DNA from: a virus
Taxonomy: Duplodnaviria > Caudoviricetes
IMG/VR virus record: IMGVR_UViG_3300010965_000001
Location: 1-64,000 of that record
Direction: 5' to 3' (one strand)
Length of the DNA stretch: 64,000 nucleotides
Part shown: positions 1,797-17,009 of the stretch, piece by piece
How positions within the stretch are numbered: the stretch's first letter is position 1
Layout: every line of letters begins with the position of its first letter
The notes under the pieces: model-generated
Databases searched by the model: none
Seen by the model: the letters and a program-made list of their open reading frames with translations, nothing else
What the model was told of the DNA's origin: nothing
Program-made: the position numbers and the translations under genes

Positions 1797-2039
1797 TTAC
1801 TGCGTGAGTCCGCAATTTTTTGGCACTAAATCAGCATATTTTACACTGTAATATCCGACATACGACTCAAAAATGACCATTTTATGTTTTCTAAAGGAAG
1901 TACATACGATGTATGGAATGAGTTTGCCTTTGTAACGGGTATAAATGGCATCCCCATCCTCCGAATTTGAGAGAATTTGGTATGAATGCGTGTAACCCTT
2001 ACCCTTCGCGTAGAGGCGAAATAATTCCTTGTTAGTCAT
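1797..2039 (-). CDS. hypothetical protein
   Basis: Start reassigned to MTNKELF; the upstream extension crosses non-coding GC island. Confidence 0.5.
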   Translation of the reverse strand: MTNKELFRLYAKGKGYTHSYQILSNSEDGDAIYTRYKGKLIPYIVCTSFRKHKMVIFESYVGYYSVKYADLVPKNCGLTQ

Positions 2040-2196
2040 TTTTTTATTTCCTAAAATTTTTTTAAAATGGGCAAAATTAACGCAAAAAGTATAGCAGAAA
2101 AACGAATAATGGCGGATATTAGGGCACACCCTGTATGGGTTACTCTTAAAAAGGCATCTCCAAGAGAAAAAAATTGTCACCGATATATGAAACAGT

Positions 2197-2272
2197 CGGG
2201 GCCGCACCCCGCCGGGGGGCGCCCCGCCCCCCTGTTGCCCCCGTGTGACCGCCCCCCTAGCCGCCCCCCGCC
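2197..2272 (-). other. GC-rich island with G-quadruplex-forming potential
   Basis: Six G-runs of 4-6 nt on the minus strand within 76 nt in AT-rich context. Confidence 0.6.
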
Positions 2273-2481
2273 TTCTGTGGGGTATATTGGATTCCTCCAC
2301 CGTGAGGTAACTTAACGATGAGTGTAACCTTGTGTGTCTCACAGCACTTGGTACATAAGACAGTCGTTGACCCACAGTTACCGTAGTTAATATTATATCC
2401 ACTGAATGCCACGTCACCACATACATCACAAGTGTAGTCCTCTTTAAAGTATTCCATTGTGTTCTTTCGTATTGTGAGTGA

Positions 2482-2766
2482 TTAGTCAATCAGTGCCATA
2501 TACGTATCCGCGTTGACCTTCAACATGAGATACTTGAGACGGTCGAAGTCACGGACTGCGGAGAAGGCTCCTGCTTCGTATTTCGAATACTGAATCATTA
2601 TCTGACGGTACAGTTCAACTTCGAACTCGTTTGCAGCAGCCATCCTGCCGAACCTGTTCGTGATTGTGTAATTCCGTGGGCCGTTGACATTGAAACCGTC
2701 AATGCCGTATTTGACCATGAGATTGATTTCGCCCTTGGTGAACGGTGCCTTTTTGGTAGTTTTCAT
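2482..2766 (-). CDS. hypothetical protein
   Basis: ORF with GGAG RBS downstream of promoter. Confidence 0.75.
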   Translation of the reverse strand: MKTTKKAPFTKGEINLMVKYGIDGFNVNGPRNYTITNRFGRMAAANEFEVELYRQIMIQYSKYEAGAFSAVRDFDRLKYLMLKVNADTYMALID

Positions 2767-2825
2767 ATTACTCCTTTATGAACGGATAGTGGGAAGTGGG
2801 ATTCTCCGTGTTATTTGATGTATAT

Positions 2826-2880
2826 AATATACAACCTTTTCCGCCCGAAAACAACGCCTTCTATGTTACGAAATTGTTAA
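2826..2880 (-). promoter_or_regulatory. promoter with degenerate TGTTAC-N5-TGTTA box
   Basis: TTGTTT-17-TATATT; box 2864-2880, 9 nt upstream of -35. Confidence 0.7.
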
Positions 2881-3074
2881 GGATTCTGCGCCTTTTCTAC
2901 CTCTTCTCTACTGAACAGCGTTGACGAATCGCACTGTTCCCAATACAAATCAGAAAGAGTGTCGAGTTCATGCTCCAACTTTTCTATTTTTTCGTTGTCG
3001 CCGTTGTCACGTACAAGGGAGAAGATTTTCACCCGAATTGCGAACATCCGTTTTTCAAATTCTTCAAGTGTCAT
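2877..3074 (-). CDS. hypothetical protein
   Basis: ORF downstream of promoter. Confidence 0.65.
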   Translation of the reverse strand: MTLEEFEKRMFAIRVKIFSLVRDNGDNEKIEKLEHELDTLSDLYWEQCDSSTLFSREEVEKAQNP

Positions 3075-3112
3075 TTTTAGTCCTTATTATCGGGGATGAT
3101 TGCCACGTATAT

Positions 3113-3168
3113 AAGATAGGGAAAAAAGAGGGAAAAGTCAACAGTTCCAATGTTACCAAATTGTTACC
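3113..3168 (-). promoter_or_regulatory. promoter with TGTTAC-N5-TGTTAC box
   Basis: TTGACT-17-TATCTT; box 3151-3168. Confidence 0.85.
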
Positions 3169-3463
3169 GAATGCGCTGGAAGTCGTTCATTGCTTCCTTG
3201 TAACCGTCACGCGTACATTTGCGGCGTTCAAGACGGTCACGTAACATATCATACCGTTTGCTGTCGAAATCCATCTCTTTCGCCATCTCCTGCGCCATTT
3301 CCGCCTCGATTTCATCCACCATTTTGGCGTAAAATGCTAAGGATTCTCCCATGAATTTCAAAACTTTGAGGCGGGAAACTGTGTATTTTGACATTCTATT
3401 CCTTTGGTCGAAATGACCGATTGTGAGAGGGTGTTCCGTCATCAACGTGTAATAATATAACAA
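3164..3463 (-). CDS. hypothetical coiled-coil protein (true start likely MSKYTV)
   Basis: ORF downstream of promoter at 3454-3513. Confidence 0.6.
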   Translation of the reverse strand: MLYYYTLMTEHPLTIGHFDQRNRMSKYTVSRLKVLKFMGESLAFYAKMVDEIEAEMAQEMAKEMDFDSKRYDMLRDRLERRKCTRDGYKEAMNDFQRIR

Positions 3464-3513
3464 TTCCAGCCCTCAAAGTCAAGAGCTGGAATGTTATGTA
3501 ATTGTTACCAAAT
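3454..3513 (-). promoter_or_regulatory. promoter with degenerate box
   Basis: TTGACT-17-TATATT; TGTTATGTAATTGTTACC at 3492-3509. Confidence 0.75.
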
Positions 3514-3524
3514 CTCGGTCAAAA

Positions 3525-3923
3525 TTACCGAGAGGTGTTCAGCTTGATCGCCGTCACAATGTCCGTGAGCAACTGCGGAATCTCCGAAGGGGAGATGCTC
3601 TCATCGTTGGCGAGGATGAGTGCCATTTCCTTGAGGAAGTCCTCATTGGCGTTCGTGTCGTTGTAGTGCTCGTTCTCATCCTCATCACAGGTGCATCCAT
3701 CGGCATCTTCAAGGGACTCAAGCGTGTCGGTGAGTTCCTCAATTTCACTCTCCATCGTTTCCGCCAGCGCTTCCAACTCGGAGTTACGTTCCTGGAGATT
3801 GCTCACCTCAACCTGCAGGTCGCTGATGGACTTTGCCGCGATGTTGAGCAGGTCTGCGGAGCGGAGGATGTTGGTCTTGAGCGTTTCGTTTTCTGTGAGA
3901 ATTGCAAAAATATTGGTATTCAT
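3525..3923 (-). CDS. acidic coiled-coil hypothetical protein
   Basis: 132 aa, heptad pattern, acidic. Confidence 0.7.
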   Translation of the reverse strand: MNTNIFAILTENETLKTNILRSADLLNIAAKSISDLQVEVSNLQERNSELEALAETMESEIEELTDTLESLEDADGCTCDEDENEHYNDTNANEDFLKEMALILANDESISPSEIPQLLTDIVTAIKLNTSR

Positions 3924-4048
3924 ATGAGTATTTCCTTATAATAGTGAGAGTGTTTGTTAAATAAATTTACATTTGGGGCTGTTGTATATCCAATTATCTT
4001 CATTCAGTTGCCGATTGAGGTGTTTCAATAGGTCACGCAGTTTGCGTA

Positions 4049-4507
4049 TTATTTACGTTTACCTTTCGCTTTCGCTTTCGCTTTGTTAATTTCACCGACA
4101 ATGTTCGACAACTGCTTGATTAATACCGATTCACGTTCCCTTTCCCATTCTTTACAGTCCGCCACCATACTCTTGTAGTCTGCGTCAGACGTAGATACAG
4201 AGGCGAAATGTACCTTCATCGCCTGTGCCACTCTCGCCACGCCTAACTGCCCAACAAGGCGGTCGTTCTTCATCACTTCGGTAAGGTGTAACTTTACTAC
4301 ATCATCGAACCCAAGATTGAGGGATGCTGCAATTACAGCGAGGTTCGTTTTGAGTTCGTCCAAATGTTCCTCCACCTGTTCGTTGATATGTGAATCGTTC
4401 TGACGGCGGTTGTATGCCTTAGAGGTGCTGTCGGACACTCGCTCTAACAATCTCCGATGCGGTTCGTAAGCCATACAACCTCCGTTTAAGTGTTTAATAA
4501 TATACAA
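4049..4507 (-). CDS. hypothetical protein (true start likely MAYEPH)
   Basis: ORF with GGAGG RBS, downstream of TTGACT-17-TATATT at 4499-4527. Confidence 0.7.
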   Translation of the reverse strand: MYIIKHLNGGCMAYEPHRRLLERVSDSTSKAYNRRQNDSHINEQVEEHLDELKTNLAVIAASLNLGFDDVVKLHLTEVMKNDRLVGQLGVARVAQAMKVHFASVSTSDADYKSMVADCKEWERERESVLIKQLSNIVGEINKAKAKAKGKRK

Positions 4508-4567
4508 ACAATTTCCTTAAAAGTCAACGCCTTACTTCAACTTTTTCACCAATTCTTTAATTTCATA

Positions 4568-4885
4568 TCAATCTCCAATTCCGTAAGATAATGACCAAGT
4601 GATTGTTTTTTCGATTTCGTTGATATTCTCGATATGAACGGAACAGGCTCCCCACGATGAACCAGCAATCGAACCACGGTGAGCGAAGCGTTTGCTAAGT
4701 GCTTCCCACATCCTACCACGGTCTGCCTTTCCCGTATACGGTGCGGTGTACTCCGTAACATCAGACCATGCTTCCTGCCTCAACTTGCCAGCGGTCACTT
4801 CTTTAATCTTGATGGCTGTCCGTTCCTGCACTTCCATCATTTTACGGTAAGGTTCAAGGATTGCTTTGTCGAAGTCTAACGCCAT
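4568..4885 (-). CDS. hypothetical protein
   Basis: ORF with GGAG RBS downstream of promoter. Confidence 0.75.
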   Translation of the reverse strand: MALDFDKAILEPYRKMMEVQERTAIKIKEVTAGKLRQEAWSDVTEYTAPYTGKADRGRMWEALSKRFAHRGSIAGSSWGACSVHIENINEIEKTITWSLSYGIGD

Positions 4886-4911
4886 TGGTATTCTCCGTCT
4901 GTGATGTATAT

Positions 4912-4958
4912 AAGATACAGAGATTTCAGCCCAAAGTCAATGGTTCCAATGTTACCAA
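4912..4958 (-). promoter_or_regulatory. promoter with half TGTTACC box
   Basis: TTGACT-17-TATCTT; TGTTACCAA at 4950-4958. Confidence 0.75.
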
Positions 4959-5273
4959 GTAGTTGGATGGACTCATACCACCATCTCTCCATTTTGGGAA
5001 GCGTTCTGCTATTGAACTACGGTACGGACGGCAGTGTACAGCCGTAATCTCTTCGTGAAGGTCGGCATTCTCCTTAATGAGCACTGCCACGCGCTCACTC
5101 ATATGACGGTTGGTGAGAACGAGCTGGTTGTTCTCCTGTTTAACCTTCGTCAGTTCCGCGTTGAGATTGGAGTTGGTCGTTGCAAGCCCTCTCAACTGCA
5201 TGGCGAGTGAATCGTTGTTCTTCATTGCGAGTTTAAGCTGGTTGGAAAGTGCTTCGATGATTTCGCTTACCAT
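4926..5273 (-). CDS. coiled-coil hypothetical protein
   Basis: Heptad pattern; promoter at 5323-5351. Confidence 0.7.
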   Translation of the reverse strand: MVSEIIEALSNQLKLAMKNNDSLAMQLRGLATTNSNLNAELTKVKQENNQLVLTNRHMSERVAVLIKENADLHEEITAVHCRPYRSSIAERFPKWRDGGMSPSNYLVTLEPLTLG

Positions 5274-5347
5274 ATGTGTGTATCCCTTTATGTGAGTGAG
5301 TATAGCGTTGTTTGATGTGTATAATGTACGAAGAATATTTTAAAAAG

Positions 5348-5713
5348 TCAAGAGTTATTTTTAACAATCTTTTCTGCTCTGGCACGGATGTTAAAATCTG
5401 CACCCATGATGAACACCCATGCAATTGCCGTGAACCACCATCCCCACATTGCAAGTGCCATGATGAACACCGTATACTGAACCTTGTCCATCCATTCTGG
5501 GAGATGCTTTCCATCGAGATAACTCTGTACCACTCTCAGTGATGCTTCCTCATTCGCCGCCGCAATCACATACGAAACTGCCAAGAACCATGATGCGAAG
5601 ATGAACACATTGCCAGCCATCTCACTGTTCAATACAAGTGCCATGTAGAGCACCCACATGAACATTCCCGTGAGTATAAAGTTTTTCAGATATTCCATGA
5701 ATGTAGTTTTCAT
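5348..5713 (-). CDS. hypothetical membrane protein
   Basis: Three to four hydrophobic segments. Confidence 0.7.
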   Translation of the reverse strand: MKTTFMEYLKNFILTGMFMWVLYMALVLNSEMAGNVFIFASWFLAVSYVIAAANEEASLRVVQSYLDGKHLPEWMDKVQYTVFIMALAMWGWWFTAIAWVFIMGADFNIRARAEKIVKNNS

Positions 5714-6110
5714 TTGTTTTCCTTTAATGTTAGAGAATGAATTTATTTCTTGGGGAGTGATGCTTGGTCTGGCTGTTATAAATCCAGTTATCCTCGTTCA
5801 ACTGTCTCTTGAAGTGGATTATCATTTCGGTGAACCATCGTTTCATTTCAATTTCTCCGGCTTAGTTCCAATGAATGCTCTGATAATGAATTTGGTCTTA
5901 TCCTCTCCATGTGCTACTGCCGTTTCGAATCGTGCTTCACCCACCACGAGTTCAACTTCTAAGTGGTCGGGGAAGGAACCGATTGTCTTTTTAAGTTCAC
6001 CGAGTGTCATTTTTTCATCCTATTGAAAAATCCAACCATTCCAAAAAATATGACTAATGTTGCCACGACTGTACCGATTGCTGACCACGTTATATCAAAT
6101 GAAAATTGCA

Positions 6111-6326
6111 TCACATATACTCCTTCCGATAATTTTCAAGCTGGTCGGGATGATGAATCTCTAACCATTCTTCCACATCATCGTCGAACCAGTCTGCCGC
6201 GACAAACAAGTTAGGAGCATCAACTATGTAATCAGTGACGAGTGCTTGAACGTATTTGGGTTGTCCTTCAAGGTAGTCCATAACTTCCTTTCCTTGCTTT
6301 GACATCTCTTTGATTGTCAGATTCAT
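6111..6326 (-). CDS. hypothetical protein
   Basis: Packed ORF. Confidence 0.6.
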   Translation of the reverse strand: MNLTIKEMSKQGKEVMDYLEGQPKYVQALVTDYIVDAPNLFVAADWFDDDVEEWLEIHHPDQLENYRKEYM

Positions 6327-6517
6327 CGTTTATCCCCATCGAGTAAGTTTTTTGCCCATCTCTCACTTCGTCTCGACAACCAATATGCTCCACCGATTAC
6401 CACTACTGATGTTACAGCAGAAGCACACAACACTACTAGAAAATCAATCATTCTTTCTCCCAGTGAATAATTTCTCTGATTCCACCAAACACGATGAGAA
6501 GAAGTCAGCCCATTCTC

Positions 6518-6703
6518 TCATTTTATATTCTCCCATGTACGTGTACTATCGGCATGAGTGACCAACTTCACCTTAGCATTTCCCGTCAGTGCATCGATTT
6601 GTCCATCTCTGTATGACGGTAAAAATGAATCAATGACGAATATTACTAGCATTCCAACTATCCACCCAAGAAAAAATGCATCAGCACGATTAACATATTT
6701 CAT
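6518..6703 (-). CDS. small membrane protein
   Basis: One N-terminal TM segment. Confidence 0.6.
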   Translation of the reverse strand: MKYVNRADAFFLGWIVGMLVIFVIDSFLPSYRDGQIDALTGNAKVKLVTHADSTRTWENIK

Positions 6704-6996
6704 TTCGTCACTTCTTCCAACACCTTCAAACCCTTGTCAGTGATTGACCAAACAACGTTCCTGCCGATTCGTGTCGTTTCAACGAATCCTTTATACCGTG
6801 CCATCGTAAACAGGTACGAACCCCATGAACGGTTGCCTGTGTTCTTAACGAAACACTCCTTGAGAATTTCCTCTTTCCGCCTCGGACCGTTGTTCCACAG
6901 ATACGACAAGAGACGAATCAATCTCGACTTCACGTTCGTCACCGATTTGTTGAGATTCAGACCGTTCCACACCTTACTGCGATGTCCGATTTTCAT
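6700..6996 (-). CDS. possible winged-helix DNA-binding protein
   Basis: Basic; C-terminal helix plus hairpin (KGFVETTRIGRNVVWSITDKGLKVL) resembles a wHTH wing. Confidence 0.45.
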   Translation of the reverse strand: MKIGHRSKVWNGLNLNKSVTNVKSRLIRLLSYLWNNGPRRKEEILKECFVKNTGNRSWGSYLFTMARYKGFVETTRIGRNVVWSITDKGLKVLEEVTK

Positions 6997-7056
6997 TTGA
7001 TATTCTCCGTTTGTGATGTCTCTACTGTTTGGTCGATGTCAAATCATCATGTATTA

Positions 7057-7116
7057 AAGATACACAATCCCCGCCCCAAAGTCAACAGGGCGGGTGTTAC
7101 CAAATTGTTATCAAAT
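7057..7116 (-). promoter_or_regulatory. promoter with TGTTAC box
   Basis: TTGACT-17-TATCTT; box 7095-7116. Confidence 0.85.
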
Positions 7117-7791
7117 GACGAATCCGCTTGTCTTGTCTTTCCGTGCCTTGCCCTTCGCCTTCAGCCCAACAACAACACCGTGCTCATCACCGAAACGCAA
7201 ATCCGACAAATCTCCGTTCACAACTTTGTAACCATTCCATTCGGTGGGGATGGTGTGAAACACTGCGGCGACATTCCCGCCATTCTCCAGCACGTGCGCG
7301 ACGGCCTTGTCGTTATCACCTGTGCGCGAAAAGGTCAAATGATAATTCTTCGGCATCTCGCCCGCCAAGAATAACATCATGCGCGGGTAACTCTTGGTGT
7401 AATCGTAAAACTGAATTTCGGGGAAGGACTGCATAACGGAGAAATATTCCCAAGGGATGTCGGACGTGCCGTTCAAACGGACACAGGGAGTCATGCTAGC
7501 CTTTACAGCCTTTTTCGTAAGTGCCACGATGTCCTTGCTCAACTGCTCAAAAAATCCTGCTTGGTCTTTGCCGAAGAACACCGTCTTAGCGATACGTGCG
7601 TTGCGGACATTGGAGAATGTTCCACGTCCTGCCGTAAACAGACATGCGGCGATACATGAAGGGGTTGCGTTCGCGCAGGTGTTCATCACACCCGATTCCT
7701 TATGCGGAGCCAAATACAAGATGCCTGTCATGTAGCCCAACTTCTCACCTTTGACCGTCTTTGCGTCTGAACCTACTGAGAGTAATTTCAA
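7111..7791 (-). CDS. GP88-like Cys-cluster (radical-SAM-like) phage protein
   Basis: C-x6-C-x3-C (CANATPSCIAAC), VRLNGTSD, FYDYTK; TTG start with GGAG RBS. Confidence 0.6.
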   Translation of the reverse strand: MKLLSVGSDAKTVKGEKLGYMTGILYLAPHKESGVMNTCANATPSCIAACLFTAGRGTFSNVRNARIAKTVFFGKDQAGFFEQLSKDIVALTKKAVKASMTPCVRLNGTSDIPWEYFSVMQSFPEIQFYDYTKSYPRMMLFLAGEMPKNYHLTFSRTGDNDKAVAHVLENGGNVAAVFHTIPTEWNGYKVVNGDLSDLRFGDEHGVVVGLKAKGKARKDKTSGFVI

Positions 7792-7825
7792 GGGATGCTC
7801 CGTATTAGTGTGATTTGATGTATAT

Positions 7826-7880
7826 AAGATACGAAGATAATAGGGGAAAGTCAATAGGGGAATGTTACCAAATTGTTAAC
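7826..7880 (-). promoter_or_regulatory. promoter with TGTTAC box
   Basis: TTGACT-17-TATCTT; box 7863-7880 (8-nt gap). Confidence 0.85.
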
Positions 7881-7911
7881 AAAAAACGGTGATTTTTGCT
7901 CAGAATCACCG
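7881..7911 (-). terminator. intrinsic terminator after tRNA-like gene
   Basis: CGGTGATT/AATCACCG stem followed by T6. Confidence 0.75.
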
Positions 7912-7931
7912 AAACTGATGTAGATAAAGGC

Positions 7932-8061
7932 TGGCTCGTAAGGGACTCAAACCCTTGTCTCTCAAATTCACCTTCACAAGTCGCGTACTTGCAAATGTCC
8001 GACAAGTCGCGCAACCCGCCAATAAAGAATATGAGTATCCTTCCCGTTAGACCAACAAGCC
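7932..8061 (-). tRNA. tRNA-like RNA with about 57-nt structured insertion at the anticodon loop; identity undetermined
   Basis: Acceptor GGCTTGT/ACGAGCC+A; D arm GTCT..GGAT; T arm AAGGG-TTTGAGT-CCCTT; long anticodon arm. Confidence 0.65.
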
Positions 8062-8254
8062 GTGGAAATAAGGTCTATCGGCGTTACACATTAACGTCAA
8101 TCGCCGACTTTTTGACGTACTACAGTAGTGGTTTAGATTTAAGTGAACCACGTTCTCACTGTTTACAGATAATTAGGCGGATTCAATTTATCGTCATATC
8201 CGCCAAAAGACTTGTTTCACGGTTTAGATTATAGACATGGCCGCCAAATGTCTA
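8062..8254 (-). ncRNA. structured non-coding RNA with tandem H-type pseudoknots
   Basis: ACGTCAA/TTGACGT with TCGGCG/CGCCGA; AGTGA/TCACT with GTGGT/ACCAC; two further hairpins. Confidence 0.5.
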
Positions 8255-8258
8255 AGAT

Positions 8259-8447
8259 TTACATCTTCATTAACTTCCTATGGAGTGCGTTCAATTCTTT
8301 TTCTCTTTTACGTATCAGCATTTTATCTGTAGCATGTTGTATTTCAAGTCGTTCAAGTTTTGCATTGAGGCGTTTGATTTGTTTCTCACGCAGGTCAATT
8401 ACTCCCTGCATTACTTCAAATTTATCTTTGTCAGTAGCCATCGTCAT
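8259..8447 (-). CDS. small coiled-coil protein
   Basis: ORF. Confidence 0.55.
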   Translation of the reverse strand: MTMATDKDKFEVMQGVIDLREKQIKRLNAKLERLEIQHATDKMLIRKREKELNALHRKLMKM

Positions 8448-8921
8448 CCTCTGAATCGTGAACGAATAGTCCCTGCCGAATTTCGAACAGGTCTTGCTCC
8501 CACTTCTTAGCCAACTTCTTAGCCTGTGCTTCAGCCTTCTTCAATTCCTTCGGCGTAGGTTCATCTGCCGCCGGTTTCTTATGTCTGCCCATCGGCGCCC
8601 TCCATCAACTTGTTTTTCCAATTTTTATCCTTGACAGGCTTGAGCAACCCCTTCTTGTATGAAGTCTTATTATTCTGCTTCTTGAGATGTTTCTGCTCAC
8701 GTGCCTGTCGCTCATCATGCGTTTCCATTATTTTCTCATCTCCGTAATTGCGTCAGTGAACTGCGTGAAAAAATTGAGAATTTCGGGGTCTACCGTATGG
8801 TCAAGTATTCATGCTTCTATCAACGTCTTACGTGCCTCACGTTTGTCTGCGGGTGAAGCGGTGTTGTAATCAACTGAACCTTTGAGAAGATTGAGTACTG
8901 CAGTTTCCATAGGGCCACGTT

Positions 8922-9164
8922 TCATAGTGAGAATCCTTTCAAATATTTATGAAGTATGTTCGCGCTAGTTAAAATCTGTTTCCAATTTTTTCCATCTGAA
9001 CCTGTTGTCACTAAGTGGCGTGTCCACTCACGCAACTTACTTTCATCGGTATTGGAGTAATCCATAATTCTGGAATGTCTCCAATCGATGAGCGGGGTGT
9101 TAAGTAATGTGGTCAACAGTAATTCAAGTTTATCATGGACTATATGTATTTCTGCCTGTGTCAT
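8922..9164 (-). CDS. small helical paralog family member (outlier)
   Basis: DKLELL..REW..WKQILTSANILHK. Confidence 0.65.
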   Translation of the reverse strand: MTQAEIHIVHDKLELLLTTLLNTPLIDWRHSRIMDYSNTDESKLREWTRHLVTTGSDGKNWKQILTSANILHKYLKGFSL

Positions 9165-9290
9165 CGTCTTAAAATTAAAGTGACGGAATATTATCGTTAA
9201 GGAGTCCAAGCCACAGCGGTAAGGGATTGCCGTCACTGTCTCCGAAGAGATAGTGAACGGGGGAGCCTCACGGCTCCCACCGCCCTTTGG

Positions 9291-10331
9291 TTACTTGCTT
9301 GCTGCCGCGATTTCCTCATCGGTGAACAGAACGTCAGAATCGTCGCCTGTCTTGGCGTCCTTCGGCTTCTCACCACAGTGCTTCTGCACCATTTGCTTGA
9401 TGTAAGTCCGTTCCGAATCCGCTCCACCGTCTGCGGAGAAGAAGGGGAAAATTGCAACTTCTGCGGCTTCCAACAGACTGAATCCATCGTTGAGAAGTCC
9501 TGCCACCTTCACTGCGGCTCGTGTCGAAATTGAAGTAGTAAGGACAGATGCCTCGCTCTTCGCTTCCTTCCTCGTGGTGTGAGAAATCTGCGAAACGGAC
9601 TTCAGTTTCGCCTCATCCACCTTCGGATAACGCTGTTTCAACAGTTCCGTTTCCTGCTCAACTTCCAGCGCCGAAATTTCCACAATCGTGAAACGGTCAA
9701 TGAGTGCGCGGTCAAGGACACGTGTTGAGGTATACTCATTACCCACGTTTGCCGTTGCGATGAACGAAACACCTTCCGCCACCAACACCGTTGCCCCATC
9801 CTCTTTTTCCTCAAGGCGGAGGTAACGCTGAGTCGGGTCTAACACAGGCATCAGGATGTTCCATGCTTCAGGATGTGCTCGTGACAGTTCATCCAACAGA
9901 ATAACTGCGTTGGGCGTCCGAAGTGCGTTGACGAAGTACGACTCGGCGAAGTACGTGCCACGTTCTTTGGAGTAATGCGTATTGCCAATCAACGATGCCC
10001 GTGGGTCTTGTGTCGAACCAAGCGGGATATTGAAGAAGGGACGTTTGAGCGAATCCGCCAAACAGTGAGCCGTCATTGTCTTCGCCGAACCAGCCTGCCC
10101 AACAAGGAGAATATTCTCCGCGCGGAGGACGTTACGAATTGCGAATTTCCACGTCAACTCAGGAAGGAACAGCTCCTTCGGCTTGAGCGAATAACTTGTT
10201 GCGATGAAGGGAATGAGATTCGCCTCAGACACAACAGTGCCCAATCCCTTGCTCAACTGCGTTTCAACCATTGCATCGGTCGAATGTGTTTTTGCCATTT
10301 TCTGAACATTCTGTTTCAAGTAGGACTCCAT
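9291..10331 (-). CDS. MoxR/CbbQ/NorQ/CobS-type AAA+ ATPase
   Basis: Walker A GQAGSAKT, Walker B ILLDE, ATAN, DRALIDRF, STR lid motif. Confidence 0.85.
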   Translation of the reverse strand: MESYLKQNVQKMAKTHSTDAMVETQLSKGLGTVVSEANLIPFIATSYSLKPKELFLPELTWKFAIRNVLRAENILLVGQAGSAKTMTAHCLADSLKRPFFNIPLGSTQDPRASLIGNTHYSKERGTYFAESYFVNALRTPNAVILLDELSRAHPEAWNILMPVLDPTQRYLRLEEKEDGATVLVAEGVSFIATANVGNEYTSTRVLDRALIDRFTIVEISALEVEQETELLKQRYPKVDEAKLKSVSQISHTTRKEAKSEASVLTTSISTRAAVKVAGLLNDGFSLLEAAEVAIFPFFSADGGADSERTYIKQMVQKHCGEKPKDAKTGDDSDVLFTDEEIAAASK

Positions 10332-10367
10332 ATTAAGTGTGTTTCAATGTCAATCGTTGATGTATTA

Positions 10368-10428
10368 AAGATACAAAGATTATAGCCAAAAGTCAACTGT
10401 TTCAATGTTACCAAATTGTTACCAAATT
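10368..10428 (-). promoter_or_regulatory. promoter with full TGTTAC box
   Basis: TTGACT-17-TATCTT; box 10406-10428. Confidence 0.85.
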
Positions 10429-10458
10429 TAGGGGGGATTTTATTCCCCCCTTTGTTGG

Positions 10459-12693
10459 TTAGATTGAACCACCGCCGTCATTCGTTTTCACTTCGGCTTC
10501 AAGGAACTTTTTATTCATCGTCCTTGCGATTTGCTCAACCGAATCAGTGTTGATATTGAAGGCGTTCTTAACACCGTACATTGCCGACAACGAACGAAGG
10601 GATGCTTTTCCATAATCCGAAATAAGGTATGAAATAACTGTTGCACCATTCCGAATCATCTTGTCAACCATTCGCTTACAGTGACGGTATGCAGGTTCGT
10701 CACCGTAGTAGAATGATTCCTTTGTTATCGTTCCATGTCCGTACCGTCCGCGCCGCCCGCCGGCAACGCCGTTGTTCGCTTGGTAACACGGTTCACCGTC
10801 CGAAAGATTGACGAAGAAGAACTGTTCGTCACGTTGCATCGAAGGGAAAATGCCGTGCATCATTGCTTCAAAACACAATGACTCAGGTGTTGTGCCGTCT
10901 GCAATCAATCGGTGAAAGTACTTACGAATATGCGACAACTGATTGACGCGGGAATCGTAAGCCACGTACACCAACGGATTCGATACCGTTGTGGTTCTGA
11001 ATGAAATGACACATTCAATGTTCTGCGTCATGTGTGAGGCGACTGCCAATGCGATACAAGTCTTAATCGCGTTCTTGAATCGTGTACCACTCATTGAACC
11101 CGACGCGTCAACTGAAATGTGGATGTGTGCCTTGTTGAACCTGTTGGTTTCAATCTTGGAAAACACGTTCGTAACATCGTAACCAAGTGATGCCACTAAA
11201 CGCTTATCCATCTTGCCTGCATCCTGTCGTGTGAACTTCAACGACTTCTCCTCATTACGAATCTGTAACCGTCCGCCAAGCAGTTTACCCAACACAAAAC
11301 CCTGCTGAACGGAATCTTTCAGATTCTCCCCGCCCCAGTTCCTGTCTGAAGGGACGAATGCTGTGTTGAAGGTACGGTTATCCATCGTCGCGTCAGTCAA
11401 CTTCTTAATAACCAACACCTGCACGGTATTACCCATAAATTCTTCACCACCAGCCAATTCAACAGTAACACCGCTGGACTGTAATGAAGTAAGACGTTTA
11501 CCTTCTGCGGCGGAGATACTCTTCTTCTTAATGTCACCGCCTACAAAGTCCTTCTGCTCCTGCATCTTCTTCAGTAACTTCTTCAGTGCGGCTTTTCCCA
11601 TTCCAAACATCGCTTTACATTCCTTGTCTGAAAGGGAATCAATATTGATTGACATGCCATCGTCATTACCGTTTTCATCTTTACATGCATCACCCAAACC
11701 AAATTCCAACAACTTCTGCGTCTTGTAATCCAACGCCGTAATGTTATCCATGATAACGGATAAGACTTTTGCGGCGACTTCCGTAACTTCCGTTGTGTTG
11801 GTGAGGCGGTCAATCTTGCCGACATTAATCAACGAACGGATTTCACGCATCCCTTTCAAGATGTCAGGATTGCTCGACTCATTAAGGCTGTTGATAATCT
11901 GATACGAATACGAATCCATCGTTTCGGTGTTGAACGTCTCGCCCTCTTTCAACTGCTTTGTAACTTCCTCAGAGAAGAAGTACCGATTGTACAGTGATTC
12001 GTAGTAGCCACGATAGCCGGGAGCCGTGTTATAGACGTAACTGTCGATGCGTCTGTCCTCAATCCAATTCTCAAGTTCCTTCAACTGAAGGACTAAGAAA
12101 AGGTCTGCACGAACCTGTGCGGCCGTCAAACCTGTGCCGAAACCCACTGTAGTCTTACCGAATACAGCCTTCCAATCCCAAAACTCAATTTTCGGATTCA
12201 AGGCGACAACACGGTCAATCATCTTCATCGTGATGTACTTCCGGCGTTCGGAAGAATTTTCAAACAACCGTTGAAATAAGGAGAAGTCCGTTTTAACGAT
12301 ATGCGATGCCTCATGTAAGGCGAGCCCTACCGTAGAATCGAAGTTACCTTCCACGTTCGATGACAGTGTAACCGTCTTACCGTCCGTATACGATTCATCC
12401 TTTTCAGAGTAACGGACAACGATGTCATCACGTTCAGTAAGGATGCGGACGAAGTTACCGCAACTTCTCATAAAGGCTCCCAACTTGATGAGCTCAAGAG
12501 TCTTCTCAGCCTTATCCACGTTCTTGCCATGAACCTTGTCAACAACGGCGACATCACCGTCTTCATCCTCATCAAAGGAGTCAAGGAATCCACCGCTGTA
12601 ACGCGACACCGCGTAGTCATCATCATCGAACCAAAACGATGAATACCGATTATTTGCGTTCGCCTTTTGTGTGGCGGTTAATTTTTTAGCCAT
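10459..12693 (-). CDS. VWA-domain protein with N-terminal HExxH metallopeptidase-like domain (CobT-like partner of AAA+)
   Basis: LHEASH, EDRRID, MIDAS DASGS, GTTPE, NLSDGEP. Confidence 0.8.
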   Translation of the reverse strand: MAKKLTATQKANANNRYSSFWFDDDDYAVSRYSGGFLDSFDEDEDGDVAVVDKVHGKNVDKAEKTLELIKLGAFMRSCGNFVRILTERDDIVVRYSEKDESYTDGKTVTLSSNVEGNFDSTVGLALHEASHIVKTDFSLFQRLFENSSERRKYITMKMIDRVVALNPKIEFWDWKAVFGKTTVGFGTGLTAAQVRADLFLVLQLKELENWIEDRRIDSYVYNTAPGYRGYYESLYNRYFFSEEVTKQLKEGETFNTETMDSYSYQIINSLNESSNPDILKGMREIRSLINVGKIDRLTNTTEVTEVAAKVLSVIMDNITALDYKTQKLLEFGLGDACKDENGNDDGMSINIDSLSDKECKAMFGMGKAALKKLLKKMQEQKDFVGGDIKKKSISAAEGKRLTSLQSSGVTVELAGGEEFMGNTVQVLVIKKLTDATMDNRTFNTAFVPSDRNWGGENLKDSVQQGFVLGKLLGGRLQIRNEEKSLKFTRQDAGKMDKRLVASLGYDVTNVFSKIETNRFNKAHIHISVDASGSMSGTRFKNAIKTCIALAVASHMTQNIECVISFRTTTVSNPLVYVAYDSRVNQLSHIRKYFHRLIADGTTPESLCFEAMMHGIFPSMQRDEQFFFVNLSDGEPCYQANNGVAGGRRGRYGHGTITKESFYYGDEPAYRHCKRMVDKMIRNGATVISYLISDYGKASLRSLSAMYGVKNAFNINTDSVEQIARTMNKKFLEAEVKTNDGGGSI

Positions 12694-12746
12694 ATTATCC
12701 TTTCGGCGTCATGCCGTTATGATGTGAACCATTTTAAGTGTCTAAT

Positions 12747-12805
12747 AAGATACGGACTTTTCAACCAAAAGTCAACTGTTTCAATGTTACCAAATTGTTA
12801 CCAAA
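12747..12805 (-). promoter_or_regulatory. promoter with full TGTTAC box
   Basis: TTGACT-17-TATCTT; box 12785-12805. Confidence 0.85.
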
Positions 12806-12810
12806 ACTTG

Positions 12811-12954
12811 TAGTCGGTGTAGGATTCGAACCTACGTAAAGGACGGCTCCTTTATCGGTAGATTGTAGGTAATTACTCCTTCAACCATCCCGCCGTGATA
12901 TGCTTTTGAGCGCTCGCCACATATCCAAATGTATTTCCAAGTTCACAACCGACT
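12811..12954 (-). tRNA. type-II-like tRNA-like RNA with about 55-65-nt insertion at the anticodon; identity undetermined
   Basis: Acceptor AGTCGGT/ACCGACT+A; T arm GTAGG-TTCGAAT-CCTAC; variable arm TAAAGGA-GCCG-TCCTTTA; own promoter. Confidence 0.7.
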
Positions 12955-12972
12955 GCCATCATCAACGTATTA

Positions 12973-13033
12973 AAGATACACAGAAAAGAGAGAAAAGTCA
13001 ATGGAAGTAGTGTTACCAAATTGTTACCAAATT
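12973..13033 (-). promoter_or_regulatory. promoter with full TGTTAC box driving the tRNA-like gene
   Basis: TTGACT-17-TATCTT; box 13011-13033. Confidence 0.85.
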
Positions 13034-13265
13034 ATCCCTGTTTTTGAATGGATTTGAGGGATTTGTAGTGTTTATTTCCCAATATACACATTTCGGCACT
13101 CGCCTCACGATGAGGCCTTGCACTTATTCTAAAATAACTAATGTATCCTTCCACTTCCGACATGACATCTACTTGCTTGTCGGTCAATGTAACATCCTCC
13201 ATTACTCTGTTATAGAGTAATTCTAATTTGTCAAGACGTTGTATAAATACGTTGTATGTTATCAT
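13032..13265 (-). CDS. small helical paralog family member
   Basis: RLDKLELL..MCILGNKHYK. Confidence 0.65.
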   Translation of the reverse strand: MITYNVFIQRLDKLELLYNRVMEDVTLTDKQVDVMSEVEGYISYFRISARPHREASAEMCILGNKHYKSLKSIQKQG

Positions 13266-13471
13266 GGTAACCTATTGATTTTTTGCCAATACTTGTTTGC
13301 TACTTCCATTCTGTGACGGTATCCGTTCGTTGCATTTTCATTGTCATTGACGAACCGCCGTGCGTCCATCACCAATTCCGCTTGCTCATCGGTGAATATG
13401 AACGATTCGCTTTTCTTCTGACACAGTATTCTGATTTTAAGTAGCCTATTACGAAATTCCTGTTGTGTCAT
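13262..13471 (-). CDS. small helical paralog family member
   Basis: RLLKIR..RMEVANKYWQK. Confidence 0.75.
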   Translation of the reverse strand: MTQQEFRNRLLKIRILCQKKSESFIFTDEQAELVMDARRFVNDNENATNGYRHRMEVANKYWQKINRLP

Positions 13472-13696
13472 GCCCACTCCGCCGACTCTTCAACGTATCC
13501 ATTGAATTTACGAGCCTTGAGATAATTGTACGCGAGGTTCGTCAATCCAATGTTGGCACTTGTCAAGTATGTCACTCAAAGGTATGACGATGGAATCATC
13601 CGTTGTAGTTATCATTGCTATCTCAAAGTGACATTTCGCCTTGAGGCGCGACAACTGAAATATAAACGTATTCCATTCACGATTGGTTACAGTCAC
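13468..13696 (-). pseudogene. frameshifted probable family member
   Basis: 229 nt; removing one C near 13520 gives an ORF ending in an ATGA overlap with the next gene. Confidence 0.5.
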
Positions 13697-13892
13697 TCCA
13701 ATGTTGGTTTGCCAGCCTCATCACTTCATCCCATCTGAACTTGTGTACACCATCTATCCACATATTACAATCGTTTATAATTTCCGTATAGTGTTTCCGT
13801 TCCCATTCCTCACAATGCTCTCTGTAATTGAATGCGGCGATCCGTAACTTCTGCAACTTCTTATCCATCAACAATTTTTTAATGAATTTCAT
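13677..13892 (-). CDS. small helical paralog family member
   Basis: KLQKLR..WDEVMRLANQHW. Confidence 0.75.
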   Translation of the reverse strand: MKFIKKLLMDKKLQKLRIAAFNYREHCEEWERKHYTEIINDCNMWIDGVHKFRWDEVMRLANQHWSDCNQS

Positions 13893-14158
13893 TTCTTAGC
13901 CTTCAGATGCTTGTACAATGCACTTGATATTTCAGTGACGAACTTCAAGTCCAATTGATTTTGGTCGCGTGACGGTGTAAAGGATTCAAGTCCGTTTATC
14001 CACCGTACAATGATTTTAATATCATCATCCCGCATGTTGGCGAATCGGTCACTAATCCACGTACTGCCTGACGGCACCTTTTCTAACAGGACACGTAACC
14101 CCTTTATTATAGATTGCCGTAATTCTCTATCCTTATCCGTAAGGTCAATTAATTTCAT
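13889..14158 (-). CDS. small helical protein, divergent family member
   Basis: VRWING..ISSALYKHLK. Confidence 0.55.
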   Translation of the reverse strand: MKLIDLTDKDRELRQSIIKGLRVLLEKVPSGSTWISDRFANMRDDDIKIIVRWINGLESFTPSRDQNQLDLKFVTEISSALYKHLKAKK

Positions 14159-14484
14159 TTCGGTGCGCTAGCCTCCAATAATATTCTCTGTGCAATATGC
14201 AAGGTTTCATCCAGATGTTCACACTCTTCGAAGATAGGACGAACGGTGTCCATCGCATCCACCACATCCGATGCTTTCATCTTGAAGCTGTATGCTACAT
14301 CGTAAGTACCGTTTGCTTTATGCTCGACACTCATTACAATGTATTCCTCGTGCATTATAATGTGAATGACGCCCCTCAATTTGCACTTCAACTTAAGCAT
14401 GAGTTTTTTCATTTGTTCGCTTGCTCCCATAATTCGTTTGCACATTTCATGGCTTGGGCAGGTGGTAAATCTTTCAATAGGCAA
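14155..14484 (-). CDS. hypothetical protein (true start likely MKKLML)
   Basis: Packed ORF. Confidence 0.55.
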   Translation of the reverse strand: MPIERFTTCPSHEMCKRIMGASEQMKKLMLKLKCKLRGVIHIIMHEEYIVMSVEHKANGTYDVAYSFKMKASDVVDAMDTVRPIFEECEHLDETLHIAQRILLEASAPK

Positions 14485-14621
14485 AGTTGTTGTGATACAA
14501 AGGAATCATCGGGTACCATTTCTCGTGGTGTGGGGTTGTTCCATGACGGTGCATGGAATGCCCGTGCTCCCATCTTCGCACTTAAAATTTCAATCCGTAT
14601 CTCAAATTCATCTATACTCAT
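14409..14621 (-). CDS. small helical paralog family member
   Basis: AMKCANELWEQANK; close paralog of the next gene. Confidence 0.7.
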   Translation of the reverse strand: MSIDEFEIRIEILSAKMGARAFHAPSWNNPTPREMVPDDSFVSQQLCLLKDLPPAQAMKCANELWEQANK

Positions 14622-14848
14622 TTCTTGTTCGCCTCTCTCCAAAGGTCATTGGCATATTGCATGTTTTTTGCCGTGTAAACTGGACTGGTATGATAATAAG
14701 TTAATGTCCCTACAACTTGTTCTTTAGTGAATAAATTATCTGTGCCACAATGTTGCCGCGGAATCCACGATTTGCAGGGATAGGATGTATCTTCCCTCAT
14801 CTTATCCGCCAATTTTTGAATTCGTACGTTAAATTCAGCTTCGGTCAT
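14618..14848 (-). CDS. small helical paralog family member
   Basis: MQYANDLWREANK. Confidence 0.7.
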   Translation of the reverse strand: MTEAEFNVRIQKLADKMREDTSYPCKSWIPRQHCGTDNLFTKEQVVGTLTYYHTSPVYTAKNMQYANDLWREANKK

Positions 14849-15144
14849 GCTTTGCTCGCTTTCTCATTAATCAATTGGAGAATTTGCGACCAATATTTTG
14901 GCATTTTCTTTTTGGCAATCACAAATTGCTTGTCTGTAAGGAATCCCTTTTTCGCCAACTGCTTTGCGAAGGAGGACATGATTTCCGCGTCCACCCCGTT
15001 GAAACCGATTCCATTGTGTTCAATGGTTTGGTCACAATTCTGTTCTTCGGCGGTCTGCCGTTCGTAGATTTTAATGATTGCACGTTTGAGTGCGGCAGGA
15101 TTCGACAGTATAAGGGATTGAATCGATGTCTTTGTCCAAGTCAT
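14845..15144 (-). CDS. hypothetical phage protein
   Basis: RQTAEEQ..HNGIGFNGVDA..KKMPKYW; first gene after promoter. Confidence 0.75.
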   Translation of the reverse strand: MTWTKTSIQSLILSNPAALKRAIIKIYERQTAEEQNCDQTIEHNGIGFNGVDAEIMSSFAKQLAKKGFLTDKQFVIAKKKMPKYWSQILQLINEKASKA

Positions 15145-15167
15145 AATGTCCTCAATTGTTATGTATA

Positions 15168-15222
15168 AAGATACACACTTTTTGGGGGGAAGTCAACAGT
15201 TTCAATGTTACCAAATTGTTAT
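15168..15222 (-). promoter_or_regulatory. promoter with TGTTAC box
   Basis: TTGACT-17-TATCTT; box 15206-15222. Confidence 0.85.
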
Positions 15223-15649
15223 CAGATTTTATCCCAATTATAGGGGTTTTTGAGGAACATTCGGCGTTTCCTGTTTGTTTTCTTCTTAATGGACTTTGCG
15301 GCACGATTGCTCAACCACTTGTCAGGAAATGCTTTCTTGAGACATTTCATCCAGCCTGTCATCTTTGTGGCGGGGCTGGAGGAGGATTCTCCGCAGTGTG
15401 ATGCTAAAGAATTTGAGCCTGTCATTTTATCTCCCCCAATTGTTTCCAAAGTTCGTTTGCCCACTGCATTACACGGTCATCTATCTCATGATGATTCCAC
15501 TGCATTACATTTTTTAGATAGAAATATTATCAATATCACTCGGACGTTGCACATATGATTCAACAGGAAATCCAATGTACTGTTGCCCCGAGTTGCGCCA
15601 CCTCTCAATTAACATATTAATCCGCAGTTTAGCCTCTGTCTGTGTCACG

Positions 15650-16057
15650 TCAATTCTGCCCTTTCAATGAGGACTTTGCCGCACTATAGAGACGATTCGC
15701 CGTTTCCATTTCCCACGCAGAGAATCGCCCCCACTTAGCTAACGAATACATAAGAAACATTGTCGCTTCATTATGTTCACCGTACAATGAACGTAAACAT
15801 GTTGCCTGTTTAACTGATTTTTTATACATATCATAATTCACATTACCTACGGCAACTCGCAAATAACCGTGATTCAGTCTATCTTGTAAGGTACTGTCCC
15901 ACAGGAAGACAGGCTTTGTTATTGTCTTATGCCACCCTTTACCGTCATTCACACCATAATTGCAGATGAAGGAACCGTTATCATCCGCAATCATAGTATA
16001 GAATTTGTTAGAGCCGCCGGTAGACTTCTCAAACACTATCATGTGTCCTGTTGTCAT
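15650..16057 (-). CDS. WGR-like domain fused to the family C-terminal helix
   Basis: SNKFYTM..FICNYGV (WGR-like) plus WEMETANRLY. Confidence 0.55.
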   Translation of the reverse strand: MTTGHMIVFEKSTGGSNKFYTMIADDNGSFICNYGVNDGKGWHKTITKPVFLWDSTLQDRLNHGYLRVAVGNVNYDMYKKSVKQATCLRSLYGEHNEATMFLMYSLAKWGRFSAWEMETANRLYSAAKSSLKGQN

Positions 16058-16263
16058 TTGCCGTCCTTTATCATTTTATAAACGTGATTCGCAGTCACCA
16101 TCCATTCACCACGTGTGTTAATATCACTTTCATCGTTACGTGTGGTGATGTTTACCCACGCATTCACTGACTGTTTAGTCCATCCACCGTAATATTTTTT
16201 ATTCTCTTGCATGGAATCTCTCAGTCGAGTCAATCGTTTTAATACATCATCTTTGGTCATCAT
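16054..16263 (-). CDS. small helical paralog family member
   Basis: RLTRLR..VNAW..WMVTANHVYK. Confidence 0.75.
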   Translation of the reverse strand: MMTKDDVLKRLTRLRDSMQENKKYYGGWTKQSVNAWVNITTRNDESDINTRGEWMVTANHVYKMIKDGK

Positions 16264-16535
16264 CCGTTCCTCTCGTTGTATCTAAGAACATCCTTGTATA
16301 ACTTATTGAAGGAAGTAATCAAATCTACATTGTGCATGCTCTCACTCTGAAAAAACATTATCCACTGGTCAATGTCTTGCACTCTTACTTCGGAAACACC
16401 AGTGCTCTGTATGCTGTGGGTAATCAACGCATCACATGGATACCCAAGGTACGCTTTCATGGCTTTTCGTAACTTCGTCAACTTGGCAACTACTATATCC
16501 GAATCCATGTCAAATTTTCCTTTGTATGTGCCCAT
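16260..16535 (-). CDS. small helical paralog family member
   Basis: KLTKLR..IDQW..FNKLYK; promoter at 16558-16586. Confidence 0.7.
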   Translation of the reverse strand: MGTYKGKFDMDSDIVVAKLTKLRKAMKAYLGYPCDALITHSIQSTGVSEVRVQDIDQWIMFFQSESMHNVDLITSFNKLYKDVLRYNERNG

Positions 16536-16593
16536 TACATTATATTCTCCATGTTAGAATATACATAATTTTGTGGTGAATGTCAATAGAGAG

Positions 16594-16806
16594 TTAGGAA
16601 CACCAGTATGCGTCTGAATCTGGGGAGCAATTATACGCAATGTGACGCATCAGCTTGCAATCTCCGATGGCATTACGACAGTCCCAGAATTCACGCATAC
16701 GGCAATAGTTACCAATCTTAAATAATTCAGATGCTTCTTGAATAGGGGCATACGCAATGTTCTTCTTTTCCATATCCGTCATAGTGAGCAAGAATGCATC
16801 GACCAT
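16594..16806 (-). CDS. small Cys-containing hypothetical protein
   Basis: ORF downstream of promoter at 16874-16902. Confidence 0.5.
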   Translation of the reverse strand: MVDAFLLTMTDMEKKNIAYAPIQEASELFKIGNYCRMREFWDCRNAIGDCKLMRHIAYNCSPDSDAYWCS

Positions 16807-16873
16807 TGTAAAGAATTCGACTGTCGGCTCCTTTATAATAGTTGACCGTTTGGTCGTTCATTGTCACGTATAT

Positions 16874-16902
16874 AAGATACGAATATAATTGCGGCAAGTC
16901 AA
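16874..16902 (-). promoter_or_regulatory. leftward sigma70-like promoter of the divergent hub
   Basis: TTGACT-17-TATCTT. Confidence 0.8.
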
Positions 16903-16950
16903 ACAAAATCGGCATGCTCTTGCCGATTTATCCTGCTATTATAGTAGTGA

Positions 16951-17009
16951 TTTGGTAACAATTTGGTAACACTGAAAGGCTTGTTTTCCGCAGGAAAAAT
17001 GCGTATCTT
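16951..17009 (+). promoter_or_regulatory. rightward promoter with full box in mirrored orientation
   Basis: TTTGGTAACAATTTGGTAACA-9-TTGTTT-17-TATCTT. Confidence 0.8.

Follow-up and report, generated by a model that had tools for sequence, protein, structure and literature searches.

A 130-nt tRNA-Arg(UCU)-like gene interrupted by a 58-nt hairpin in a cyanophage-like genome, quite possibly a disabled duplicate

A 130-nt element on the minus strand of a large phage genome was found to be, very probably, a tRNA-Arg(UCU) gene that is interrupted between nucleotides 36 and 37 by an insert of 58 nt. The window analyzed (64,000 nt) covers positions 1-64,000 of a virus record (IMGVR_UViG_3300010965_000001) that has a length of 210,562 bp and is rated as complete by CheckV. 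The element is unannotated and is mis-parsed by standard tools; it is another short-insert phage tRNA gene, with an insert that is plainer than most, and it is quite possibly just a broken spare. The parts of the element, with RNA position 1 at 8061 and the discriminator A at 7932, are as follows:

7932-8061, minus strand: whole tRNA-shaped gene, 130 nt
8026-8061, minus strand: 5′ exon-like part, comprising the 5′ strand of the acceptor stem, the D arm, the anticodon stem strand CTCAT, and A32, U33, U34, C35 and U36
8026-8028, minus strand: UCU anticodon (Arg, AGA codon) at canonical positions 34-36, after U33 and a 5-bp stem
7968-8025, minus strand: 58-nt insert, RNA nucleotides 37-94, a hairpin of about 10 + 5 bp
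7932-7967, minus strand: 3′ exon-like part, comprising A37, U38, TTGAG, the variable loop AGAC, the T arm, the 3′ strand of the acceptor stem and the discriminator A
7878-7911, minus strand: intrinsic terminator, CGGTGATT / AATCACCG and then TTTTTTGTT (8-bp stem, 9-nt loop, T run)

An initial annotation had described a tRNA-shaped RNA gene at 7932-8061 with clear acceptor, D and T arms, and this description was confirmed on the minus strand, where the arms can be read directly and are intact. The acceptor stem (GGCTTGT/ACGAGCC) has 7 bp including one G-U; the D arm (GTCT/GGAT) has 4 bp, two of them G-U, and the loop AACGGGAA; and the T arm (AAGGG/CCCTT) has 5 bp and the loop TTTGAGT, with a variable loop of 4 nt (AGAC). 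Canonical features of tRNA are thus present, including the 7-bp acceptor stem, G18 and G19 in the D arm, and U54, U55 and A58 in the T arm; U56 stands in place of C56, likewise in other phage tRNA-Arg. Position 26 is A, and nucleotides 27-31 (CTCAT) pair with TTGAG at 39-43 except for one U-U. A long helix occupies the space between the D and T arms; the anticodon stem is extended, as had been stated, and the extension (CTCATATTC/GAATTTGAG) consists of 8 pairs plus one U-U. The stem strands of the anticodon arm lie 65 nt apart, and a canonical 7-nt loop is obtained only after in silico removal of nucleotides 37-94. Two blemishes were detected in the exons, the U31-U39 mismatch and an A15-C48 combination where a Levitt pair is expected; these may be the first signs of decay. 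The absence of an encoded CCA, also remarked on initially, was verified (the discriminator A at 7932 is followed by GCC), but does not make the element special, as CCA was encoded in none of the 35 ordinary tRNAs of this phage whose 3′ ends were read. The terminator that had been reported to follow the gene begins 21 nt past the tRNA 3′ end; it was missed by our consensus scan, which covered loops of 3-8 nt only, solely because its loop of 9 nt is longer than 8 nt.

Folded without constraints, the element formed a cloverleaf in which the anticodon arm is long (−46.1 kcal/mol, z = −3.3); 2 of 200 shuffled sequences folded equally well. ARAGORN in intron mode placed a tRNA at exactly c[7932,8061] but with a meaningless ‘Cys’ parse, whereas in default mode it reported neither a tRNA nor a tmRNA; the intron option had been suggested at the outset. 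A match to a known Rfam family had also been allowed for, and none was found for the element, RF00005 included, at gathering thresholds or at E-values up to 10. The silence of the default tRNA finders and of Rfam, together with a 112-codon TTG-start frame that overlaps the element on the plus strand (7896-8234), could be read to mean that there is no RNA gene here and that the fold arose by chance in DNA that is either non-coding or coding. We consider this highly improbable: the frame has no match among the Pfam-type and PHROG families tested, is opposite in direction to every neighboring gene and spans the terminator, while the tRNA arms match real Arg tRNAs (E ~6 × 10−8), the fold is more stable than shuffled sequences, and the exact ends are recovered by ARAGORN in intron mode. 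The frame was likewise rejected as a gene in its own right, given the lack of a family match and the wrong orientation. Hallmarks of tmRNA are a G3-U70 pair and a tag reading frame; tmRNA, YrlA and other tRNA-like Rfam families were rejected for the element, in which pair 3-70 is C-G and which has no ARAGORN tmRNA call and no Rfam match.

The identity of the element as tRNA-Arg(UCU) was apparent from the register of its anticodon. A32, U33 and U34-C35-U36 follow the 5-bp stem in canonical register, and the A and U past the insert serve as positions 37 and 38. Removal of nucleotides 37-94 generated a 72-nt sequence with the loop AUUCUAU, including A37, that was called tRNA-Arg(TCT) by default ARAGORN. 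Because ARAGORN is permissive, with some tRNA called for many arbitrary deletions at other loci, the identity was weighted on the register and on core similarity and not on this post-deletion call. The boundaries of the insert are unambiguous, provided that A37 is indeed required. It had been proposed that the anticodon loop was replaced by a helix of about 57 nt; the size of the insert and the long rod were upheld, but the loop is interrupted and not replaced. The initial annotation missed that the anticodon survives in register and that excision of nucleotides 37-94 would leave a canonical tRNA-Arg(UCU) arm. With regard to the core, the closest of the 35 ordinary tRNAs of the phage was its own tRNA-Arg(gcg), which has GGCTTG, CGAGC, CTC../..GAG and the variable loop AGAC in common with the element. 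A covariance model built from the element scored 42.7 bits on a provirus tRNA-Arg(CCU) (L082), a locus to which its T arm had led. The unusual T loop TTTGAGT was also found in phage tRNA-Arg(UCU/CCU). A20 is the classical identity nucleotide of tRNA-Arg, which is also recognized by a discriminator A or G; the element has A20 in its D loop and A as its discriminator. In addition, the tRNA found near cobS-like AAA and GP88-like genes in related phage contigs, the two genes that flank the element, was usually tRNA-Arg(tct).

On its own, the insert forms a hairpin (about 10 + 5 bp, loop of 11 nt) at −20.9 kcal/mol; 4 of the 10 pairs of its lower stem are G-U. It stacks on the anticodon stem to form a long rod. 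However, the continuity of the two is less remarkable than it appears, since A32-U38 and U33-A37 are formed between the exons, which leaves U34-A94 and C35-G93 as the only two additional pairs to which the insert contributes. The direct repeat noted in the initial annotation is present as two 10-nt copies of CGCGACTTGT at 7976-7985 and 8002-8011 (plus strand). This repeat with its 26-nt period and the four G-U pairs look like the outcome of slippage, and not like a streamlined mobile intron. Nor does the insert have the shape of a tRNA: no TTCRA motif and no acceptor-like stem with T arm and T loop were found in it, and it has no Rfam match. No second copy was detected in the 210-kb phage genome, and a MITE within the phage was rejected on account of this single occurrence. 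One 16-mer from the insert matched a dispersed palindromic repeat of an Acaryochloridaceae metagenome-assembled genome (G001), with similarity extending to 32 of 37 bases, and an nhmmer search with the repeat family gave its best match in the phage genome on the insert (E 0.007, rising to 0.07 when the seed copy is left out). Profile scores of this order turn up about once in every 3 Mb of unrelated phage DNA, and the extension P-value (6 × 10−4) for insert versus repeat did not survive correction for at least 120 seed hits. A repeat origin of the insert is hence not significant once the search procedure is counted and is kept as a lead only; among the approximately 350 cyanobacterial genomes searched, no other one matched. 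The G001 repeat itself is about 90 nt in length, with outer arms GGGTTTCGGCTTC/GGAGCCGAAACCC and two inner hairpins (z = −4.5; no Rfam family). It occurs at 6085-6185 of L302 and in at least 40 other places in G001, with parts of it in 16 of the 401 cyanobacterial genomes sampled.

We compared the insert with known intervening sequences of tRNA and rRNA. To our knowledge, the removal of tRNA introns in bacteria and their viruses is thought to proceed by group I self-splicing only. Group I introns reside in the anticodon loops of cyanobacterial tRNA-Leu(UAA) and of proteobacterial tRNA-Arg(CCU) and tRNA-Ile(CAU); they are of about 200 nt or more, with a P3-P8 core and a conserved terminal G. 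Similar to these, the insert is in the anticodon loop of an Arg(YCU) tRNA, directly 3′ of the anticodon, and the last exon base is U. In contrast, it is of 58 nt and ends in A, without a P3-P8 core or a match to RF00028 even at an E-value of 10, and a group I intron was rejected on size, RF00028 and terminal base, in agreement with the earlier assessment that the insert is too short. The bulge-helix-bulge (BHB) introns of archaea and eukaryotes are, like the insert, short, located after the anticodon and paired with anticodon-loop bases. The BHB-like segment that had been proposed can be drawn, with two bulges on opposite strands 4 bp apart, but one of the bulges is of 4 nt and this conformer, at −37.3 kcal/mol, is 8.8 kcal/mol less stable than the best fold. 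Cleavage at the bulges would leave a 9-bp stem, consistent with the earlier view that splicing there would not give a canonical anticodon arm. BHB splicing was rejected on the grounds of the 4-nt bulge, the energetic penalty, the 9-bp product stem, and the absence of splicing endonuclease (PF01974) and RtcB from the phage. Bacterial 23S and 16S rRNAs carry intervening sequences that are excised by RNase III, and the fragments are not religated and still work. As in those cases, an extra hairpin with no catalytic core extends a native helix of a stable RNA, and the rod of the element is long enough to be an RNase III substrate. The two differ in that rRNA fragments function unligated, whereas a tRNA nicked in its anticodon loop cannot decode; thus, excision alone would not rescue tRNA function.

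The nearest published parallel is found in Lak megaphages, whose tRNA genes carry short introns described as ‘enigmatic’ (Devoto et al. 2019, Nat Microbiol, PMC6784885). In both, phage tRNA genes are lengthened by a short anticodon-loop insert that is too small to self-splice and belongs to no Rfam family; without the insert, the exons would give a normal tRNA. Like the Lak cases, the element combines intact exons with a short anticodon-loop insert that is not a ribozyme. The Lak inserts differ in being conserved across cohorts, where they occur beside insert-free alleles, and one of them is tRNA-shaped (PMC6784885), whereas for the element no relative, empty allele or tRNA shape was found; neither a conserved insert nor an insert-free allele emerged from the viral, metagenome, related-record and source-sample searches. 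The hosts also differ, with Prevotella for Lak and probably a cyanobacterium here. Other phage tRNA genes with short inserts were observed during these searches. At 7574-7696 of contig L102 lies a 123-nt tRNA-Arg(CCU)-like gene with a 51-nt insert, the 3′ end of which pairs with four anticodon-loop bases as in the element of the window; the restored loop would have U37, and the GP88-like gene of the contig is of 50% identity. Anticodon-loop inserts of 46-47 nt were seen in a Leu(CAA)-like tRNA (L169, 44-174) and a Thr(GGT)-like tRNA (L184, 12308-12425, minus strand), with the L184 insert containing a T-arm-like hairpin.

These parallels bear on whether the insert is a true intron of the ‘enigmatic’ type seen in phages, the removal of which would yield a working second tRNA-Arg(UCU). 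On this account, host endonucleases, for instance an RNase specific for double strands or for AU, would attack the base of the rod with cuts at 36/37 and 94/95, and an RNA ligase would then reseal the anticodon loop. Exact excision would give a canonical loop with A37 from undamaged exons, AGA is the most used Arg codon of the phage, and the 3′ end of the insert pairs with anticodon-loop nucleotides in a manner comparable to the introns of protein-spliced pre-tRNAs. Precedents are provided by the published Lak megaphage tRNAs with inserts that do not self-splice (PMC6784885) and by L102, where the insert is just past the anticodon of a tRNA-Arg(CCU), an equal 4-bp anticodon/insert helix is formed, and the contig has a GP88-like gene. 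Nevertheless, the 3′ cut would have to be made inside a helix and not in a bulge, and the insert is neither tRNA-shaped nor a member of any family found. We know of no endonuclease that would make the 36/37 and 94/95 cuts, and of no bacterial or phage activity that fits such an insert. Family profile searches of the phage genome detected no archaeal-type splicing endonuclease (tRNA_int_endo, PF01974), RtcB, RNase III (Ribonucleas_3_3), PolyA_pol/CCA-adding enzyme or AAA_33 polynucleotide kinase family member. Among the control genomes, the PF01974 profile matched the archaeal controls only; the RNA_lig_T4_1 profile had no match even in its control and is hence uninformative. One candidate for the sealing step was identified:

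123661-126402 of the phage genome (1662-4403 of L424), minus strand: protein of 913 aa, in the central part of which an RNA_ligase (PF09414) domain scores marginally (29.5 bits; cut-off 27)

This weak domain favors an intron, yet the match is marginal and finds no support in PDB or PHROG; in the Atlas, the clusters closest to the protein consist of DUF6267/cytidylyltransferase-like phage proteins. Taken together, a genuine intervening sequence appears somewhat unlikely, and that the hairpin is cut out and resealed in a bacterial host, as protein-dependent splicing of a plain-hairpin insert distinct from group I and also from tRNA-shaped inserts, is slightly less likely still.

The element was searched for relatives and for alternative forms. 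A 19-mer of its T arm was found only in L082, an ordinary tRNA-Arg(CCU), and a 15-mer of the T arm at 105 loci, every one an ordinary tRNA. In metagenome contigs, the T arm plus acceptor gave no match and a D-arm 16-mer gave 75, which were mostly chance matches or bacterial tRNA-Trp/Glu. The insert pattern returned 10 chance matches in coding DNA of viral contigs, and the predicted spliced junction sequence none. No relative with an insert was detected when the covariance model of the element (R1) was run over 100 loci and 21 related phage records, nor was any relative of the element found by synteny through the cobS-like AAA and GP88-like neighbors. An insert-free allele was absent from the viral, metagenome and related-record searches, and among the sequencing runs listed for the locus were two DNA runs (probably of the source sample) and no RNA run; the contigs of the DNA runs contained no variant, no joint and no insert-free form. 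Little weight attaches to this absence of relatives, given that the collections contain only distant kin of the phage as a whole.

The singleton status is relevant to a further explanation, that the gene is meant to yield the RNA in its unspliced form. Such an RNA would be a stable tRNA mimic that does not decode, acting as a decoy for tRNA-targeting defense nucleases or tRNA-binding sensors or, alternatively, as a tRNA ‘frame’ that lends the hairpin RNase P/CCA processing and stability. The intact top half of the tRNA and the terminator of its own agree with such a role. So does the abundance in phage contigs (>120) of tRNA frames in which the acceptor and T arms are constant and the middle is hypervariable, although that family has other constant parts, does not occur in the phage genome, and is linked to the element by nothing observed here. 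Aberrant anticodon regions are also found in two loci with the D arm of the element, L238 and L556; these were found through a D-arm seed, and with little else in common their kinship is unproven. Against a mimic, the element is a singleton with no conservation to indicate selection on the rod, and no target nuclease or sensor was identified. Moreover, an in-register UCU and A37-U38 would be left over from a simple insertion into a functional tRNA, and a designed mimic would not need them. We therefore regard a mimic as rather improbable. The constant parts of the frame family are the acceptor AGTCAGG/CCTGACT, the T arm ACAGGTTCGAATCCTGT and a tail, AC; the D arm is often class II-like, and the hypervariable middle spans 20-130 nt. 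It is represented at L010 6234-7068 (four tandem copies), L007 9936-10037, L015 4306-4574, L026 12665-12751 and in L433, as well as in more than 120 other IMG/VR contigs; among 134 copies, 130 sequences were distinct, and as many as 6 copies lay within 5 kb. Of the two loci with the D arm of the element, L238 4-71 is tRNA-like with an anticodon loop of 4-6 nt, and L556 8167-8274 (the same as L241) has a 22-nt loop, 41 nt in place of the T arm, and a perfect 7-bp acceptor stem.

The genomic setting of the element was also examined. The 35 ordinary tRNA genes detected by ARAGORN form a single minus-strand cluster at 173-190 kb of the phage genome, about 165 kb away from the element, and include an intact second tRNA-Arg(tct) at 176761-176833. 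Two cluster members received odd ARAGORN labels, Asn(att) with a 3-nt ‘intron’ at 186495-186573 and His(atg) at 189847-189916, and these may have enlarged loops or unusual anticodons. The element itself is at the 3′ end of a minus-strand unit, followed by the terminator, inside a 2-17 kb block of small minus-strand genes with a G+C content of 0.44-0.46 compared with 0.36-0.40 elsewhere; this block (2000-17000 of the window) may be a module of different origin. The neighbors of the element are as follows:

7111-7854: GP88-family protein, downstream neighbor
9291-10331: cobS-like AAA_5/CbbQ_C ATPase, upstream neighbor

The best match of the AAA protein in the collections was of 63% identity, and the relatives of the phage there are all distant. 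By this ATPase, the nearest named phage is Microcystis phage Mel-JY01 (49% amino acid identity), and the host is therefore likely to be a cyanobacterium, as judged from sequence. A second, longer GP88-family paralogue (417 aa) is encoded at 38104-39357 of the window. An intergenic motif, AATGTTACCAAATTGTTAACAAAA (plus strand), at 7861-7884 recurs near 3149, 7095, 10404, 12783, 13011, 15204 and 16951; it is conserved and limited to the 2-17 kb block. It adjoins the promoter-like sequence TTGACT-N17-TATCTT on the minus strand at 7854-7826 and 7085-7057, and the two elements probably constitute a phage promoter/operator set. The tRNA 5′ end is separated from a coiled-coil-like gene of 62 codons by a 197-nt non-coding spacer (8062-8258, minus strand) with four hairpins and two copies of the linker AATCTAAACC. 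The stability of its fold is not unusual (z = −1.4), and its sole Rfam match is a weak one to the TMV pseudoknot (E 4.7).

Overall, disablement of a tRNA gene by an insertion, which the initial annotation had raised only as a way to refute its proposal, is no less likely than a spliced tRNA or a decoy/mimic, and we tentatively favor the element as a disabled, non-decoding duplicate of tRNA-Arg(UCU). Because the acceptor/T-arm half is normal, host enzymes would be expected to mature the transcript, with RNase P and a 3′ nuclease trimming its ends and the CCA-adding enzyme completing it. With no self-splicing core and no known activity that fits, the RNA would retain its hairpin; U34 and C35 would be buried in a helix, so that the unspliced RNA should be neither charged by ArgRS nor able to decode. 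This predicted inability of the transcript to decode as it stands agrees with the non-decoding character raised as one option in the initial annotation. Such a copy could be tolerated because an intact tRNA-Arg(UCU) is present in the 35-tRNA cluster. The one-off insert, the slippage-like repeat, the lack of plausible removal machinery, the intact paralogue, and the U31-U39 and A15-C48 blemishes make a disabled copy the most likely outcome. Counter to this, all four stems, G18-G19, U54-U55 and A58 are intact, which implies that any inactivation is recent or that the exons are still under selection. In addition, AGA is the commonest Arg codon of the phage (36%), such that a second working tRNA-Arg(UCU) would be useful, and the recurrence of short anticodon-loop inserts in phage tRNAs (Lak, L102, L169 and L184) suggests that at least some of them are removed.

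Short inserts incapable of self-splicing recur in large phages, where they interrupt tRNA genes; the Lak megaphages were the first example. The locus described here is a clean case in a cyanophage-like genome, with perfect exons, an anticodon in register and an intact paralogue as an internal control. Should protein-dependent splicing be true, the 913-aa protein would be a candidate sealing enzyme. If the element is only a disabled copy, it would serve as a lesson for annotation, in that default tRNA finders miss it and intron mode labels it ‘tRNA-Cys’. The locus is a convenient substrate for deciding among spliced RNA, unspliced stable RNA and junk.
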